Positions 7,990 to 16,000 of a DNA stretch of 64,000 nt are shown piece by piece. A model generated the notes under the pieces. It was not told where the DNA came from. It saw only the letters and a list, made by a program, of their open reading frames with translations, and did not search any database. The DNA lies in NCBI GenBank assembly GCA_963743305.1, contig CAVUPH010000016.1, forward strand, positions 32,001-96,000. Direction: 5' to 3'. Source of the stretch: an uncultured delta proteobacterium (GTDB lineage: Bacteria > Desulfobacterota > RBG-13-43-22). Both the position numbers and the translations under genes were made by a program. Within the stretch, counting starts at the first letter, position 1. Each line of letters starts with the position of its first letter.

Positions 7990-9198
7990 TTAAGACCTGA
8001 GTAGTATTTTCCGGAGCCAGTCCAGGGCCATGACCGTGACCCGATCGGCCAAAATGTCCGGGGGCCCGCCGATGGGGTGTTCATAGTATTCCGATCGGTG
8101 TCCCCGTGCGAAACTCAAATGCAATACCTGTCGGTCGGCGGTTTCCGCAACGAAAATTCCTAACCCGCAATCTGTTGCCAGCGCTTTCCTGATCGACCGG
8201 GCTAAAGGCAGCCCCGGGTTTTTTTGTGGTCCTCTTATTTTCAGGGGCCAGTCGGCCCAATGCTGGATGACCCAGCCACCCTTGATCCCGGGGCTCGGGG
8301 TGGCTTGTAGACGCTGAAAAATTCGTCCGTCGGTAAAGGCATCGGCTACCGCTAAGGTGAGACTCTGCTGTTCCAGTTCCCGGACCACGGTACCTTCCAG
8401 CGTTTCCTCGTCTTCCCCAAAAATGACTGGTCCCAACCGTTCCCGAATTTGATCGGCTACCGTCTGAATAAGTTTTTGCGTGGCTTCCCGGTTTTTGCCC
8501 CTGGCAGTCAGCCGGATTCGGATTTCTCCCGGAGAGGCTAAGAGGCCGATGATCGGGTTGGTGCTCTCCCGGATCAGGTCCCCGATCTGTTCATCCACCC
8601 GGCTTTCACCCAGGCCGCAGACCTTCAAGACCTTATATTCGATCAATCCCCGGGCCGTCCCCATTTTCTTTTGGAGAAAGGGGGCGATGGACTCCGACCA
8701 CATCCGTTTTAACTCGCGGGGCACCCCCGGGACGGTGATGATTAGATGCTCTTTTTCGGTTTCCAGGATAAACCCGGGGGCCGTACCGATCGGGTTGAGC
8801 AGGGTTTGGGCGCGGGCCGGGATATAGGCCTGCTTGCGGTTATTGGGGGCCATGACAAATCCCGCCAGATCGAAATATCCCTGGATAATCCGCAGCAACC
8901 GGGGATGGAAAACCAGTTTTCGACCGGTGATCCGGGCGATTACTTCCCGGGTCAGGTCGTCTTCGGTTGGGCCGATGCCTCCGGTAGTCATAACGATCCG
9001 GGAGCGTTTCAGTGCCCGGGACAGCACTTCGGCCATGCGCCGAGGTTCATCCCCCACCTGACTGGAATAGCGGACTTCAATCCCCAGTTCCTGAAACCGG
9101 GCGGCCAGATAGGAGGTGTTGGTATCGATGATCTGCCCCAGTAAAAGCTCAGAGCCGATGGCCACAATCTCGGCGGTCCAGTTTTTCGGCATGCGCAT
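7990..9198 (-). CDS. cinA: CinA-like protein (MoCF-binding domain plus degenerate PncC-like domain)
   Basis: IGSELLLGQIIDTN, TGGIGPTEDDLT, NPIGTAPG, PGVPREL, GLGES motifs. Confidence 0.9.
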   Translation of the reverse strand: MRMPKNWTAEIVAIGSELLLGQIIDTNTSYLAARFQELGIEVRYSSQVGDEPRRMAEVLSRALKRSRIVMTTGGIGPTEDDLTREVIARITGRKLVFHPRLLRIIQGYFDLAGFVMAPNNRKQAYIPARAQTLLNPIGTAPGFILETEKEHLIITVPGVPRELKRMWSESIAPFLQKKMGTARGLIEYKVLKVCGLGESRVDEQIGDLIRESTNPIIGLLASPGEIRIRLTARGKNREATQKLIQTVADQIRERLGPVIFGEDEETLEGTVVRELEQQSLTLAVADAFTDGRIFQRLQATPSPGIKGGWVIQHWADWPLKIRGPQKNPGLPLARSIRKALATDCGLGIFVAETADRQVLHLSFARGHRSEYYEHPIGGPPDILADRVTVMALDWLRKILLRS

Positions 9199-9279
9199 CC
9201 TCCATTTTTTGGATCAGCTTGCTGGAAGATCGAAGAAAAGTCAACCCCCCCGGTCCGGGATATCATTACTAGATGATTT

Positions 9280-9594
9280 GGTTATTCGCCCTTTGGGGTG
9301 GGTGGCCACAACCAAATGGTAGACTAACCTGGAATTGGGCCTCCGTGGCCGTCGGGTCTTGGCGAAAGGGTTTTCCATATTGTTTTTTAGATGTTAACCC
9401 GGCCCCCGTGTTATTAAATCTTCCCGGAGGCAGGGCCAGCCTGAGAGGCTTCAAAAGTCTTTGAGTTTGGGCCTACTTCAAATAAAATTAGTATGTTCGG
9501 CCCGGATTCGAAGTCCGAAGAACCTTTGGAAAACCCTTACGCCAAGACCCGACGGCCAGATCCAATAGGGGGGGTAGCCACCCCAAAGGGCGAA
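9280..9594 (+). repeat. Structured ~310 nt element, copy 1 (candidate ncRNA or MITE-like element)
   Basis: Inverted homologous copy at 12771-13040; 31-bp stem 9347-9377/9527-9557 and outer stem 9285-9301/9578-9594. Confidence 0.85.
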
Positions 9595-9711
9595 GCGCCA
9601 ATTATTTTTCTAAATTTTATACCAGACTTTCCGAAGAAACCCTTAGGGTGTATTATCTTCAAGGGATCTCTATCCCTGATTACATCGGTGTCCTAAAAGG
9701 AGGTTTTTTCA

Positions 9712-10497
9712 GTGAAAAAATGGATCAGGCAACTCGTACTGACTTTAGGAATCGGCTGCTTAGGATTGGGCCTGACAGCGGTAGCCGTATCGGCCCAGGG
9801 GGTGCCTTTGAGGGTTGGCATTACCCCGGATTATCCGCCGCTTATTTTTCGCCAGGGGGAGACGGTCACGGGCATCGAAGCGGACCTGGCCCGGAAACTC
9901 GGACAGGAGCTTAATAGGCCGGTAAGTCTGGTCACGCTGAAATGGGAGGAGCAGATCGACGCGCTCTTGGGGAAAAAGATCGATCTGATAATGTCCGGGA
10001 TGAGCATCACCCCCGTCCGGGAGATCCGGATCCGGTTTAGCGACCCCTACCTGAAAAGCGGCCTGCTGGCGGTCTTTAGGGCGGAGGATTCCAAGAAATA
10101 TGAAACCAAGGAGGGGCTGCTTAAAGGGATTGCGGTGGTTGCGGCCGCTCGCGATACCACCGGAGATGTTTTCTTAAAAAGGAACTTCCCCCGGACCACA
10201 CGGAAGGTCGTTCTCCCTAAGCCCGGGGACGCCGTCTATGAGTTAAAAAGGAGGTCCATTGATATTTTTATCCATGACGCCCCTTATATCCTCTGGATGG
10301 TTTCGCAAAACGAAGCCGATTTGACCGCCCTCTGGGAACCATTGAATCAGGAGTCCTTGGCCTGGGGGATCCGGAAAGATGATGAGACCCTCCTTACTCA
10401 AGTGAACGAGGCGCTCAAAAAATGGCGGGGGGACGGGACCCTGGAAGCGGTCCTCCTCAAATGGCTTCCGGGGAACTACTTGAATATCTTTAAATAG
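9712..10497 (+). CDS. Amino-acid ABC transporter substrate-binding protein (family 3), orphan
   Basis: Signal peptide, LRVGITPDYPPL, KIDLIMSGMSITPVR, AWGIRKDD; GGAGG RBS. Confidence 0.9.
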   Translation: MKKWIRQLVLTLGIGCLGLGLTAVAVSAQGVPLRVGITPDYPPLIFRQGETVTGIEADLARKLGQELNRPVSLVTLKWEEQIDALLGKKIDLIMSGMSITPVREIRIRFSDPYLKSGLLAVFRAEDSKKYETKEGLLKGIAVVAAARDTTGDVFLKRNFPRTTRKVVLPKPGDAVYELKRRSIDIFIHDAPYILWMVSQNEADLTALWEPLNQESLAWGIRKDDETLLTQVNEALKKWRGDGTLEAVLLKWLPGNYLNIFK

Positions 10498-10522
10498 TCT
10501 TATCAACCCGATCGGTTTCGCC

Positions 10523-11779
10523 TTACTGACTGGTAATTTGATGAATACTGCCCCCCGGGTAATCGGCTACATACAGATTGCCCGCCTGATCCTCGCCAAA
10601 GGTAGAAATGCCGAAGGGGGCGGTTAGCAGTAGATTGGCGAACCAGGTACCGTTTAAGCGCTGCAGTCCACGAATAGTACCGGAACAAATATCACCATAA
10701 AAATAAATACCCTGCATAGCGGCATTGCCCGGGCCGCGATAGACATACCCGCCGGTGATGGAACAATCCGGGGAGTGGGGGTACTCCGTCACCGGGGAAG
10801 AATACCGTAGGGGCGCAACGCACCCCACGGGCGGGTCAAAGCAATGCAATCCTTCCAGGATGTTCCAGCCGTAATTTTCCCCTCCCGGGCTGTTTGTCGG
10901 CTGAAAGTCAACCTCCTCCCAGAGGTTCTGACCCACGTCGCCAATGTAGAGGTCGCCCGTCTGCCGGTCGAAAGAAAAACGCCAGGGATTCCGAAGTCCC
11001 AGGGCCCAGATTTCGCCTCGATATCCGGGTGTTCCCACATAGGGGTTGGTGGCGGGGATGCCGTAGTTTAGCGCCGGTCCCGATTTGAATATCAAAGGGA
11101 AATAGGTTCTAAATAAAGCTAATACCGGGGTGTTGACCGGTTCCACATCGATTCGAAGCAGTTTTCCCAATAGCGCGCCGGGGTTCTGACCGTTCTTGAA
11201 GGGATCGCCCCCGCTGCCGCCGTCCCCGGTACCGATATAGAGGTAGCCGTCCGGCCCAAACTGCAGTTGTCCCCCATTGTGGTTGGAAAAGGTGGGGTGC
11301 TCGATGGTCAGGATGATCTCCTCACTGTTCGGATCGGCTACATCCGGGTTGGACGTCGGCCGGAAGCGGGCGATGACCAGCGTTCCGGTCGGATTGGTAT
11401 AATAAACGTAAAAGCGGTTTCTGGTGGATCCGTAGCCCGGGGGAAAGGCCACGCTCAACAAACCCTGTTCCCCCCCGGGATTGCCCAAACGAGCGGCGAT
11501 GTCCAGGAAGGGAGTCGGCAGCAGGGCGCCGTTTTTTATGATTCGGATTCGGCCTGGTTGTTCGGTGACGAAGACCCGGGAACTGTTGTCGCCGGCGTGG
11601 GTGATGGAAGTGGGCTGGCTCAAACCGCCGACGATCGGGCTGAGATTAATGGTCGGCCAGGATTGGGCTTGGGCCGATTTCAGTCCTAATGATCCAAACA
11701 GCACCCAAAGGCCGGCTATGGCTAGGAATAAGCCCGGGAAAGAAAGCACAATTAACCGTTTTTGTTTTTTTATAAACAT
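10523..11779 (-). CDS. Secreted glucose/sorbosone dehydrogenase family (PQQ-type beta-propeller) protein
   Basis: GEQGLLSVAF, NHNGGQLQFGPDGYLYIGTGDGG, GLRNPWRFSFD, STFGED; AGGAG RBS before ATG at 11779. Confidence 0.92.
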   Translation of the reverse strand: MFIKKQKRLIVLSFPGLFLAIAGLWVLFGSLGLKSAQAQSWPTINLSPIVGGLSQPTSITHAGDNSSRVFVTEQPGRIRIIKNGALLPTPFLDIAARLGNPGGEQGLLSVAFPPGYGSTRNRFYVYYTNPTGTLVIARFRPTSNPDVADPNSEEIILTIEHPTFSNHNGGQLQFGPDGYLYIGTGDGGSGGDPFKNGQNPGALLGKLLRIDVEPVNTPVLALFRTYFPLIFKSGPALNYGIPATNPYVGTPGYRGEIWALGLRNPWRFSFDRQTGDLYIGDVGQNLWEEVDFQPTNSPGGENYGWNILEGLHCFDPPVGCVAPLRYSSPVTEYPHSPDCSITGGYVYRGPGNAAMQGIYFYGDICSGTIRGLQRLNGTWFANLLLTAPFGISTFGEDQAGNLYVADYPGGSIHQITSQ

Positions 11780-11968
11780 GCCCAAAACTCCTTTCTTTTT
11801 CCTCTCACCTGGCGGGAGAGGTTGGGGAAAAGGGGGAAAGATTTGTTTTGCATGCCTTATAGAAATACTTTAACCTAATATAGCAGTTTTGTCACCTGGG
11901 ACCAACACGAATTAATCCGGATTTTCCCAGGCCGAGTAGTATGAAATCAAAAACAAAGAGGAGAAATT

Positions 11969-12754
11969 ATGAAAAAAGATAGACTGGTATTTCGACGGTT
12001 CAAGGGGTTTCTCTGGCTCGCCCTGGTCTTGACGACCGGTTTGCTTTTCAATTTCAACCCCGCCCTGGGGCAGGGAACGAAACCCCTCGTTGGGCTGAAC
12101 GCCACCACGCTAACAACCGATTTTGTTTATTTGCCGGTGATTTTCAAAGATGTAGGTGCCTGCCCGCAGACCGTTTGTAACGGGGATTTTGAGAAGGGTC
12201 CGGATGGTTCCTGGGCCATTGCTTCGAGCAATACCTTAGCGGACTTCGTAATTGTGAACTTATTCGATTTTGGAATTTCCAATCACAGCGGTAATTTTTC
12301 CGCCTGGTTGGGTGGAGATCCCGCGGAGATCACCACGATCACCCAACAAATCACTGTCCCCGGGGATGCCACTCAGCTCGTTTATTGGTATTGGATCGAC
12401 TCCAACGACATTTGCGGAAAGAGCACGGCAACGGTTTACCTGGACACCACCCCCTTAAAGTCCTACGATTTGTGCCAGGTGACAACGGACTGGACGATGG
12501 AAACGATAGCTATTCCCGCTAATTTTCAGGGAAAAACGTTGAATCTGATTTTTAAGGCGGAAACCGCCCCTGATCCTAACCCTGATCCCATCAACGGGAG
12601 TAAAGTCAGCAGCTTTTTCTTGGACGATGTGTCCATTCTGGGAGTCCAGTCGCCGATTTCCTTGAAAAGCACTGGACAGACCCCAAAAACCGGAACGCCT
12701 TTTTCTCCCGTGTTAAGAAAGTCTCCCAGGTCTTCGGCGGAGAAAGGCCAATAA
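11969..12754 (+). CDS. Secreted protein with a jelly-roll/carbohydrate-binding-like domain
   Basis: Signal peptide; NGDFE..W, SAWLGG, ITQQITVP, FFLDDVS pattern; FVYLPVIFK motif just after the signal peptide. Confidence 0.7.
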   Translation: MKKDRLVFRRFKGFLWLALVLTTGLLFNFNPALGQGTKPLVGLNATTLTTDFVYLPVIFKDVGACPQTVCNGDFEKGPDGSWAIASSNTLADFVIVNLFDFGISNHSGNFSAWLGGDPAEITTITQQITVPGDATQLVYWYWIDSNDICGKSTATVYLDTTPLKSYDLCQVTTDWTMETIAIPANFQGKTLNLIFKAETAPDPNPDPINGSKVSSFFLDDVSILGVQSPISLKSTGQTPKTGTPFSPVLRKSPRSSAEKGQ

Positions 12755-12770
12755 GGCCTCCAGGATCGAA

Positions 12771-13040
12771 GGGGCTCGGCGAAAGGGCTTTCCAAAGGTA
12801 CTCCGGACTTCGAACCCGGGCCTAAGTTACCAATTTTATTTGAAGCAGGCCCAAACTCAAAGGCTTTTGATGCTTCTTCGGCCGGCCCTGCCTCCGTGAA
12901 GATTTAGAAACATGGGGGCCGGGTTAGAACCTATAAAGCAAGGTGGAAAACCCTTTCGCCGAGACCCATCGGCCTCGAAGGCCTGATTTCAGTCCAATCT
13001 ACCAGATAGTGTGGCCACACACCCAAAAGGGCGAACAACC
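12771..13040 (-). repeat. Structured element, copy 2 (inverted relative to 9280-9594)
   Basis: Reverse complement aligns by eye with 9280-9555 and shows compensatory stem changes. Confidence 0.85.
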
Positions 13041-13061
13041 ATTAAAAACCCGCTAGGCGGA

Positions 13062-16000
13062 TTAATCAAGGCGCTCGGCTCTTCGCAAACCGGAAGCCGG
13101 CTGTTTGAGATTGAAGGTGTATTGCTTAATCGTTTGCTCGCTCGAGTACCAGGGCACGCCGCCCACTTTGACCTGTATTCGCGCCTTCGCCGACCGCAGT
13201 GCGAGGCGCGGTTCGATCTTCCCGTTGAAGCTGGCGTTCCAGGTTTTCTTCCCGAAATCTATGGAAACGTGGGGGCCAGGCTTCTTCAGGACGGTGGGTT
13301 GGTAGCCGACCTTTCGAAGGACGGTTGATTGGTAGGGATAGACCAGTCTCCCCCCATTGGCCAGGGCCTGGGCGTAATCCGGGTGCGATAAGAGCGGCAC
13401 ATTGATTTGGTGGCCGTTCACCGAGAAGGAAATGTCGCCGAAGTTGGTCAGGCCGTCTGGGAGATCCCCTTGCAGCGTGATAGACCCCAGACCCGTGGAT
13501 TGATCAAAGGAGCCGTTGTATCTGCTCAGCGAGAGCCCGTCCGAAGCCGTCGCGAGAACGCGGTGGTCCCATTGGGTTTCGACCTGGTGGTCAACCTCAG
13601 AAGAGAACGTATATTTGCCGTTCACTTTTAACTTCAAATGAATTCGTCCGCCTGAGTCCCCCACCGCCTGGGAAAGATCAGCCTTGGCGAGGTTGAAATC
13701 CCAGGTGGGCCTATCGAAATCGAGTTTCAGGACCACGATGTCACTCTGTATGGAGCTACTGGTCCTGAACGTCCAGACATTCCCCTGGCGCGTCCAGGTG
13801 CCATTGGCCTCCGGTGACGACCAGGTGTAACCGTTCAGCTTGACGGAGACCCCCGAGGTCGGGTCGAATTGCTGGGCTGTCATGGGGATACGTTTGACCG
13901 TCCATTCATCTTCCTGCCAGACCATCTTGCCACCCACGAGGGAATAGCTGCTGCCGCCGGCGTTCCGGCTGCTCCCGCGGAGCCTGCCGCGCCCGCTCCT
14001 ACGATGGTCCCCGAGGCCTGATCCGCTTGGACGCTGGCGCCGAACTGCTGGCCGCCGACCGTGGCGCCCGAGGTGATCGTCCAGTGTATGGCCCAGGGCA
14101 ACTGCGAGTTGTAGCCCGTAGGCACCCAGGGGGCCTGGTTGTCCGTAGCCTGGAGCAGATAGGGCTGGATGGTCATGGTTTTGATGCAGCTCGGGTCGTT
14201 GTAGCAAGTAGGTATCACCAGCGCTGCGTTGACGTCGGTCCCCAAAGTAGCCGTGTTCGTCACGGAATTGGAAAAGTGTCCATCGTAACCCGCCTTGAGG
14301 TCAGCCTTGAAACCATTCAGCTCCGTGCCGATATCGAGACTCGTCTGGTTGGAAACGTCGACATCTGATGTCTGACCGGTGGTCGTCACCGTTTGGATAT
14401 CTTGCGAAAATGAGACGTTCCCGTTGGAGCCGGTCCCAAAACTAATCGTATTGATCCCCTTTTCGCCAGCGGTGGTATCTCCCAGCAAGGTTATGAAATG
14501 GTTGATGGTGGAATTGGTGGAATTGGATTCCCAGTCCGTAGTCCACCCGTTGAGGAAGTCCGTTGATTGCGTGAGCGGTACGACCCCGCTCATCAGCCCC
14601 GGGATGTCATCGTTCGGGCCGCCCGGGTTCGCCAGCTCGAAGGCCACCTGACGGTAAGAGAGCGCGGTCGGTTGGTCTGGGTGGTGTGGACGTCCTGGTT
14701 GAGGGGGGTGCCGATGTTGGTGGCCGTGACGTAGTCGTAGGCATAGAGCGCGTAATCCTGCACGACGATCGTCGGTACGTGAAAGATCGCCCAGCCCATC
14801 ATGCCGAGTTTGTCATAATCGTCGGGGTTCGTGGATGCGCTTTCGGTGCCGAGTGTCAACCCGTAGCTCACGGTGGAAGTCGTACTGGTCTCGTGGGCAC
14901 TCTCCCAGGCATGCTTGTAGTTGGAGTCTACCTGATCCTGGATGCCGAATTTATGCTCCATCCCGGCCTGGAGCGTGAGACCGGCGGAAACCAAGACAGC
15001 GTTTGACGTTTCCTGGCTGTTGGACACTTCGACGCCTAGCTCTTGCCGTAAGTAACATTGGAGAGATGCTCGATATCGGTATCTACTGCCCCGTTTCGAT
15101 TGAAGGGAGGGCTGCCCATGACCACGCCGACCAGTGTCCAGTACTTCCGAAGCGTCGCCTGTTCAACGGAATTACCGGTGCCGGTGTTGGTGCCCGTGCC
15201 GCCCGAACTTTGGCAACTGAGGGGGATGTCGGTATTTTGGGGAACCATGGCGTCGGAGGTGAAGGGCAGGTTCTGGGTGAGTTTCAGGGAGGGATAGGAG
15301 GTGTTGATGACCAGATGCTGCCTCTGGATGTTGTTGTTGGCGGTACACTCGGTGATGAACCAGGGGAAGGCGCTGATGCCGGTATAGCCATATCCACCGT
15401 TGGGGACGAAAACTTCGGGATCGACTTTCCACTGCCCGCCGGTCGTAGTGTAACTGTATTCGAGGCGCCTGACGGCGGATGAGGTCTCGTTCGTCGTCGA
15501 ATAGGTGGCCTGCGCGCCGAGAAAAAGCTGGAGGGTGGGGGTCTTGGCCGCCGGCCGAGAAACCCGGCGGATTATTGCCGGGTTGCAGGGTAAAGGCAGG
15601 GGAGGCCGTCCCGGCGAACAGGCCCAGGGAATGGTTAAAGTAGGTGCTTCCACTGGGTTCGCCGATTCCGATATTTTGGCCGTTGAGAACGGAGCCCGCT
15701 CCAAACTGACCATTCCAGGTCGCGGCGTAGAGGGAGTTATATTCAGAATAATAAGTCGTATAATTCCCATAAATAATCATAATCAGTGGATCGGCATCGG
15801 CGGGGTAAAAAGTGATGGCGTCCAACGGCTCCATGTTAGTGCCGCCGACCGAGAGCGCCGGGTAGGAACTCCAGTTGACGCCATCGCCGCTGGTGTAAGT
15901 CCCGTTATCCGCGAAGACATAGAGCAGGTTGTTGAAGACGACTATCGCTGCACTGGCCATGTCAATGACTTCACTGTAGCCAACTTGCGAGTAGGAATCC

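Follow-up and report, generated by a model that had tools for sequence, protein, structure and literature searches.

A repeated, covarying palindrome in an uncultured delta proteobacterium is very probably an ISL3-related miniature transposable element

The DNA analysed here (the window) is a stretch of 64,000 nucleotides from an uncultured delta proteobacterium (assembly GCA_963743305.1, contig CAVUPH010000016.1, positions 32,001 to 96,000), and our subject is a palindromic element that occurs in it twice, on either side of three genes. An earlier note, made from the letters of the window alone, had described the element as a twice-repeated run of hairpins at 9280–9555 and 12771–13040 and offered it as a candidate novel structured RNA or mobile element. 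The two stretches are indeed homologous: copy 1 (9280–9599, plus strand) and copy 2 (about 12766–13040, minus strand) share a mean column identity of 83%. The long closing stem that had been described for copy 1 is present as an inverted repeat of 32 nt (9346–9377/9527–9558; 97% complementary). Around it lies an outer inverted repeat of 24 nt (9278–9301/9578–9601; 88% complementary) with ends that are conserved across copies; its right arm had been missed, so copy 1 ends at 9599 and not at 9555. The element as a whole is a nested palindrome, in which outer arms of ~25 nt enclose the inner 32-nt inverted repeat and this in turn encloses an asymmetric core of 149 nt. The ends of copy 1 read GGTTATTCGCCC and GGGCGAAGCGCC. 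Copy 2 keeps the left outer arm, the core and both inner arms (the right one degenerate) and is without the right outer arm. The features of the locus are as follows.

9272..9279, no strand: left target-site duplication of copy 1, GATGATTT, identical to its right-hand counterpart AATTATTT at 6/8 positions
9280..9599, plus strand: copy 1, a putative full-length MITE (miniature inverted-repeat transposable element) of 320 bp in the canonical arrangement; end-to-end match to the nhmmer profile
9280..9305, plus strand: left arm of the outer terminal inverted repeat (TIR), an A-type end (GGTTR...); outer inverted repeat, with a consensus that agrees at 29/37 positions with the end of an ISL3 insertion sequence (IS)
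9346..9377, plus strand: left arm of the inner inverted repeat, 32 nt; helix 3 of the predicted fold, covarying
9378..9526, plus strand: asymmetric core, 149 nt; conserved in blocks, with small hairpins, among them the T-loop-like CGGATTCGAAGTCCG
9527..9558, plus strand: right arm of the inner inverted repeat, 97% complementary to the left arm; helix 3
9574..9599, plus strand: right arm of the outer TIR, a B-type end; reverse complement GGCGCTTCGCCC
9600..9607, no strand: right target-site duplication of copy 1, AATTATTT
9712..12754, no strand given for the group: three ordinary genes between the copies and outside the element; by Pfam SBP_bac_3 (plus), GSDH (minus) and one with no family (plus); the earlier note had called them exported-protein genes
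12766..13040, minus strand: copy 2, truncated; nhmmer match to model positions 1–275

Both copies belong to a large family. The window's own assembly (hereafter G000) derives from a soil bacterium and comprises 43 contigs with a total of 4.9 Mb, at 90% completeness and an estimated contamination of 5.7%. A DNA search of this assembly with the element returned 94 matches. By blastn we obtained 47 hits of at least 150 nt (46 of them non-overlapping) at 72–100% identity, and an nhmmer profile built from the blastn copies gave 221 hits over both strands, corresponding to 127 non-overlapping loci on many contigs; among these, 43 are at least 250 nt long and 31 are matched end to end (about 319 bp). 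What had been read as a twice-repeated element is therefore a family of 127 profile loci. Adjacent pairs of the TIR end motif in G000 number 47, with a spacing of 292–325 nt in 30 pairs and of 38–210 nt in 13, and no adjacent pair was spaced between 326 nt and 9.3 kb. We therefore distinguish a long form of ~319 bp from short forms of ~100 bp that are without the inner 213-nt segment. A small protein was considered and rejected, as a conserved reading frame is absent: in 41 copies the longest stop-free stretch has a median of 36–59 codons in every one of the six frames.

The family was also looked for in other genomes. With the window copy as query, we found the element in all six searched genomes of three related genera (3/3, 2/2 and 1/1); none of the 14 genomes from a fourth genus within the same bacterial family, and none of the 20 from the phylum's other families, gave a match. 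The congeners of G000 likewise carry many copies; three congeners or sister species (G001, G002 and G003) were used below for the comparison of orthologous sites. In the species collection, the exact 19-nt end motif occurs at 49 loci, 42 of which lie within three metagenome-assembled genomes (MAGs) titled 'uncultured delta proteobacterium', and seven unrelated MAGs have one exact match each, unpaired. All unpaired ends in the loci of the relatives belong to truncated or rearranged copies. Five copies in G002 (e.g., C28:760144-760430, C27:44221-44495 and C20:716278-716560) are 95–97% identical to window copy 2, and several G002 copies are near-identical among themselves on the tree of copies, which suggests that a copy-2-like subfamily may recently have burst in this genome, one that also holds ISL3 transposase genes. 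Within G000, the 8.6-kb contig C3 repeats copy 1 together with its flanks (C3:7696-8056 equals window 9260-9620 at 99.7% identity) and is probably a duplicate or strain-variant contig of the assembly.

The flanks of the element point to transposition. Among the 31 end-to-end copies, the 8-bp flanks are identical at all eight positions in 13 and at seven positions in a further 9, whereas control flanks taken from different copies agree at a mean of 3.35 of 8 positions and perfectly in only 2 of 930 pairs. The target sites are AT-rich. Where the window reads GATGATTT-element-AATTATTT, the orthologous site in G002 is a single uninterrupted GATTATTT, and copy 1 is missing at the orthologous site in G001 and G003 as well. 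We extended this comparison to 27 distinct full-length copies in the relatives, for 23 of which both flanks map to one G000 contig. The gap in G000 equals exactly the 8-bp target at 4/23 sites and measures 9–12 nt at 3/23; at 4/23 sites it is 306–345 nt, the element being common to both genomes, and at 9/23 it is 44–263 nt, with the inspected examples representing truncated or otherwise shorter members of the family. The remaining 3/23 have gaps of −1, 21 and 32 nt. The window itself holds an empty site with the 8-bp target only, at about 601–610 (C16:32601-32610), and G002 carries a full-length, flipped copy (L057) exactly at the orthologue of this position. In the short form at C7:178541-178655 the inner arms are fused and the core is gone, and G003 has a full element at that site, so at least this short form looks like the product of a hairpin deletion.

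Copy 2 has a different history. At the orthologous site in G002 it is found in the same truncated state, with a different repeat inserted into it, and is an old insertion. Given the empty sites for copy 1 and the shared truncated state of copy 2, the two are thus independent insertions of different age and do not bracket an invertible 3-kb segment. The repeat inserted in G002's copy 2 represents a second family of ~218 bp (L092:3767-3985; orthologous to window positions about 12770-12950) with TIRs CCCAATGCCGTTAACTTAA. Its end motif has 23 matches with at most 3 mismatches in G000, for example at C16:112089 and C16:112252, outside the window, and one occurrence lies near a DDE_Tnp_1 hit on C23. 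A further difference between the genomes concerns the neighbourhood of copy 1: G002 is without ~750 bp at window 9636-10384 (with a 12-nt overlap of the flanking matches), a gap that takes most of the SBP_bac_3 gene; in G001 and G003 this gene is retained. This looks like a deletion adjoining the empty copy 1 site.

A candidate partner of the element was found in the relatives. An IS of ~1435 bp (1.43 kb) lies at contig starts in G002 (C9:1-1440; L119) and G003 (C18:1-1435; L118). Its terminal repeats of 37 nt are 95% complementary, and its coding sequence, broken into several frames, specifies Zn_ribbon_ISL3, HTH_Tnp_ISL3 and DDE_Tnp_ISL3; the last of these domains (PF01610) has three matches each in G002, G003 and G007. 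The ends of the MITE and of this IS are alike at 29/37 positions and share an asymmetry, one end being A-type (GGT...) and the other B-type (...CGCTTC). An 8-bp duplication is typical of the ISL3 family at large. One ISL3-family transposon, the example given in PMC9782665, makes an 8-bp AT-rich duplication. The element thus resembles an ISL3 IS in its 8-bp AT-rich duplication, in ends that begin GG.T.TTCG-like, in the 29/37 TIR identities and in the same left/right asymmetry, and differs from one in having neither a transposase nor internal similarity to the IS of G002 and G003. This particular IS is best taken as a relative and as no more than a candidate mobiliser.

Other candidate partners were tried and rejected. 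No transposase was found in G000 around paired ends 0.4–6 kb apart, and none of the eight open reading frames (ORFs) adjoining solitary ends in G000 encodes one. The segment C7:178541-180942, considered as an autonomous element, consists of two short elements flanking genes that look ordinary (judged by eye). Loci with other transposases (PF01609 and PF00872) are without similarity to the ends of the element, and the ends of a second ISL3 element (L117) differ.

The TIRs, the 8-bp duplications, relatives at more than 100 places in the genome, orthologous sites that are empty and the ISL3-like ends lead us to read the element as a mobile one: it is very probably a MITE, ISL3-derived or ISL3-mobilised, of an uncultured lineage, and not an RNA gene. 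The earlier note had left the choice between a novel structured RNA and a mobile element; the second part stands, by virtue of the TIRs, duplications and empty sites, and the first is unsupported. The family is new, and small bacterial MITEs that fold into long stem-loops are already well known. Bacterial MITEs measure up to about 400 bp and include Correia/nemis of Neisseria, bcr1 of Bacillus and the integron-mobilising IMU (Delihas 2011, PMC3184786). As they are described there, our element shares with them its small size, TIRs, target duplications, many intergenic copies, the lack of a transposase gene and a long stem-loop. It differs from them in its host (MAGs of an uncultured 'delta proteobacterium'), its duplication of 8 bp, its nested second, perfect inverted repeat of 32 nt, the flipping of its core, its hairpin-deleted derivatives and the lack of similarity to any repeat RNA curated in Rfam. 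Multicopy, intergenic, hairpin-forming repeats are also known among the palindromic elements derived from IS200/IS605 and among REP/RAYT systems. These move as single strands and are not known to make target duplications or to have TIRs. Since the element has both TIRs and target duplications, it is not of this kind, and an HUH-type mechanism (IS200/IS605, REP) was considered and rejected.

The covariation that had drawn attention to the locus is real. The compensatory double change of the two window copies (cttggcg/cgccaag versus ctcggcg/cgccgag) is present, and we assessed its generality on 41 distinct copies of canonical arrangement, drawn from the relatives as well as from the window's genome, for which RNAalifold predicts 62 pairs. 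Changes on both sides affect 15 pairs, compared with 5.4 in shuffles (0/500 shuffles as high), and sliding the pair partners abolishes the signal. Helix 3, the inner stem, accounts for nearly all of it, with both-side changes at 13/28 pairs (69 cells), a level reached by 0/500 shuffles; the other two covarying pairs lie one in each of two outer-arm helices. Two arm columns are hypervariable and always complementary (CG 18, UA 18 and AU 5 in one; CG 20, GC 14 and UA 6 in the other). The core hairpins (helices 5–8) have no pair with both-side changes in the 41 copies, and outside the stem the pairs with the highest mutual information form no helix-like run. Several core blocks are conserved to at least 90%. 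For the internal hairpins of the earlier note, conservation of sequence holds and covariation does not; one of them, tcaaa/tttga, said to be kept, has a mismatch in most copies (consensus). Some copies (L061, L076, L077 and C27:50339-50673) have an additional GC-rich mini-hairpin of ~12–14 nt (CCCGCC-TAAG-GCGGG) at one spot in the core, alignment columns 106–134, and different small hairpin inserts occupy the same spot in C6:124128 and C13:134995.

Strand asymmetry was evaluated in 59 distinct copies oriented by their core. The inner stem has 1761 Watson–Crick cells, 22 of G–U type, 13 of A–C type (which would be G–U on the other strand) and 25 transversion mismatches. The wobbles had been said to fit one strand only; across the family the ratio is 22:13, which is not significant and comes from cells that are not independent, and the transversion mismatches come on top. 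Core orientation was compared with neighbouring co-directional ORFs and was the same in 14 and opposite in 12 cases, based on rough ORF calls. The core is also inverted relative to the asymmetric ends in 11/59 copies, by two kinds of flip: one takes place between the inner arms, and the other turns round everything that the outer arms enclose. On a tree of cores the flipped state needs 10 changes, compared with a mean of 10.3 for shuffled labels, and the flipped copy C33:46071 is the nearest relative of the canonical window copy 1 (support 80; 92% identity). Four DNA metagenome runs yielded short contigs, mostly of other copies of the repeat; one contig of one run has an opposite-strand joint at 9346/9570 that is not assignable to copy 1. 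Covariation located in the palindrome arms, no significant strand asymmetry, no orientation bias and a core that flips all speak against the earlier inference of selection at the single-stranded level, as far as it concerns one strand.

The stem covariation is genuine and is a property of the transposon palindrome. In the mechanism we propose, template switching or recombination between the arms would keep the two arms of each copy alike at the DNA level. The same interaction would invert the spacer, so that roughly one copy in five has its core flipped with respect to the ends, and would give rise to hairpin-deleted short forms of ~100 nt at sites where relatives carry the long form. The conserved core blocks would most likely be cis sites for mobilisation, or be inherited from master copies. 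Such an interaction of arms would be expected to produce recurrent inversion, hairpin deletions and covariation of the arms that has no strand bias. Under the title 'Template switching in DNA replication can create and maintain RNA hairpins', such events are said to give apparently compensatory changes. Both arm homogenisation and spacer inversion are effects of template switching between inverted-repeat arms in the cases described in PMC8604942. Our element resembles these quasipalindromes in arm homogenisation that mimics compensatory substitution and in the inversion of the spacer. In that literature, as far as PMC8604942 represents it, the repeats are short and the spacers a few bases, whereas the element has spacers of 149 nt and about 270 nt, which makes it just as likely that the arms interact by homologous recombination.

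Several observations weigh against this account of the element and its arms. PF01610 has no match in G000, and blastn with the IS of G002 and G003 likewise finds none in this 90% complete assembly; IS copies often stay unassembled. The ends of the IS are only about 78% identical to those of the MITE, and the transposase of that IS copy is split into at least four ORF pieces, at similar places in G002 and G003, which may reflect either a decayed copy or homopolymer errors in the assemblies. The tree of cores is poorly resolved (5/52 inner branches are strong), and the strong branches alone permit a single origin of the flipped state. At column 97/301, 10/41 copies have U–G, which would be C–A on the other strand; in the canonical set, this one inherited column supplies ten of the G–U cells. 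Finally, we infer the homogenisation of arms by template switching, and the same covariation would result if a hairpin were selected for in RNA or in single-stranded DNA.

Four other readings have to be considered. The first holds that the strongly conserved 149-nt core has a function of its own, as a small RNA or as a regulatory signal reading outward, and that the element flips it by recombination between its 32-nt arms. We regard this as very unlikely. On this reading, the intergenic copies, more than 40 in number, would each act next to host genes as a two-state switch that is inherited, and recombination would be kept inside a single copy by the hypervariable complementary bases of the arms.

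A novel family of structured non-coding RNA genes, in which stem and internal hairpins are selected in the transcript of one strand, ranks below it, and we give it little credence. The strong covariation of the long stem, the U–G column, the core blocks and the T-loop-like CGGATTCGAAGTCCG hairpin would all suit such a gene, as would the absence of an explanation among known Rfam families: a covariance-model scan of 8500–14000 on both strands gave no match at E ≤ 1. ARAGORN predicts no tRNA or tmRNA gene in 9000–13300, which speaks against an RNA gene. MITEs, moreover, are frequently transcribed and fold as RNA, and in bcr1 compensatory changes keep a cruciform-like structure and were interpreted at the RNA level, according to PMC3184786. 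Against an RNA gene stand the presence of every transposon hallmark, core hairpins that do not covary and non-stem pairs of high mutual information that are non-helical. The 22:13 mismatches are not significant and 25 transversion mismatches are tolerated; the orientation relative to genes is unbiased (14:12), 11/59 copies have a core that is inverted with respect to the arms, and at orthologous sites copies are found in truncated, internally deleted or interrupted states.

Lower still we place an invertible switch, in which a recombinase acting on the 32-nt arms would flip the 149-nt core together with a signal that it carries, such as a promoter, and arm positions 6–9 would be copy-specific crossover bases. 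Both core orientations do occur, scattered over the tree, and within the 213-nt segment the arm columns 7/207 and 8/206 vary strongly and yet are complementary in 41/41 and 40/40 cells. Insertions between divergent genes are three times as frequent as those between convergent genes (12 versus 4, alongside 26 in tandem contexts; rough ORF calls), and the core holds one sigma-70-like promoter match at 9461–9488. That match, however, is at chance level (shuffles have a mean of 0.6). The covariation is spread along the stem and not confined to a crossover dinucleotide, and the second kind of flip, via the outer arms, is as expected of general recombination or template switching between any inverted repeat. 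Two insertions shared between species, the pairs C36/L053 and C12/L059, are moreover in the same orientation state in both.

That the two copies of the window make up a composite transposon, or bound a 3.2-kb segment that can invert with its three genes, is the least probable reading. In its favour, the copies are inverted and, at 3.2 kb, closer than the family's average spacing. Against it, copy 1 is flanked by an 8-bp duplication of its own and is absent from G001, G002 and G003, and two of these, G001 and G003, do have the intervening genes. Copy 2 is without the outer right arm and is in the same truncated state in G002. The insertions are therefore of different age, and copy 2 is unable to act as a transposon end.

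Read as a MITE, the family carries a caution for RNA discovery: covariation in a long stem of repeated elements is no evidence for RNA if that stem is formed by a transposon's inverted repeat; DNA-level homogenisation of the arms gives the same pattern. The family has not demonstrated a new principle of palindrome dynamics; its arm covariation, two kinds of inversion and hairpin-deleted orthologues do form a tidy natural data set on the subject, which is where its interest for the study of mobile DNA lies. For annotation, it identifies as mobile DNA more than 100 intergenic sites, here and in the congeners, and ties them to an ISL3-type transposase.

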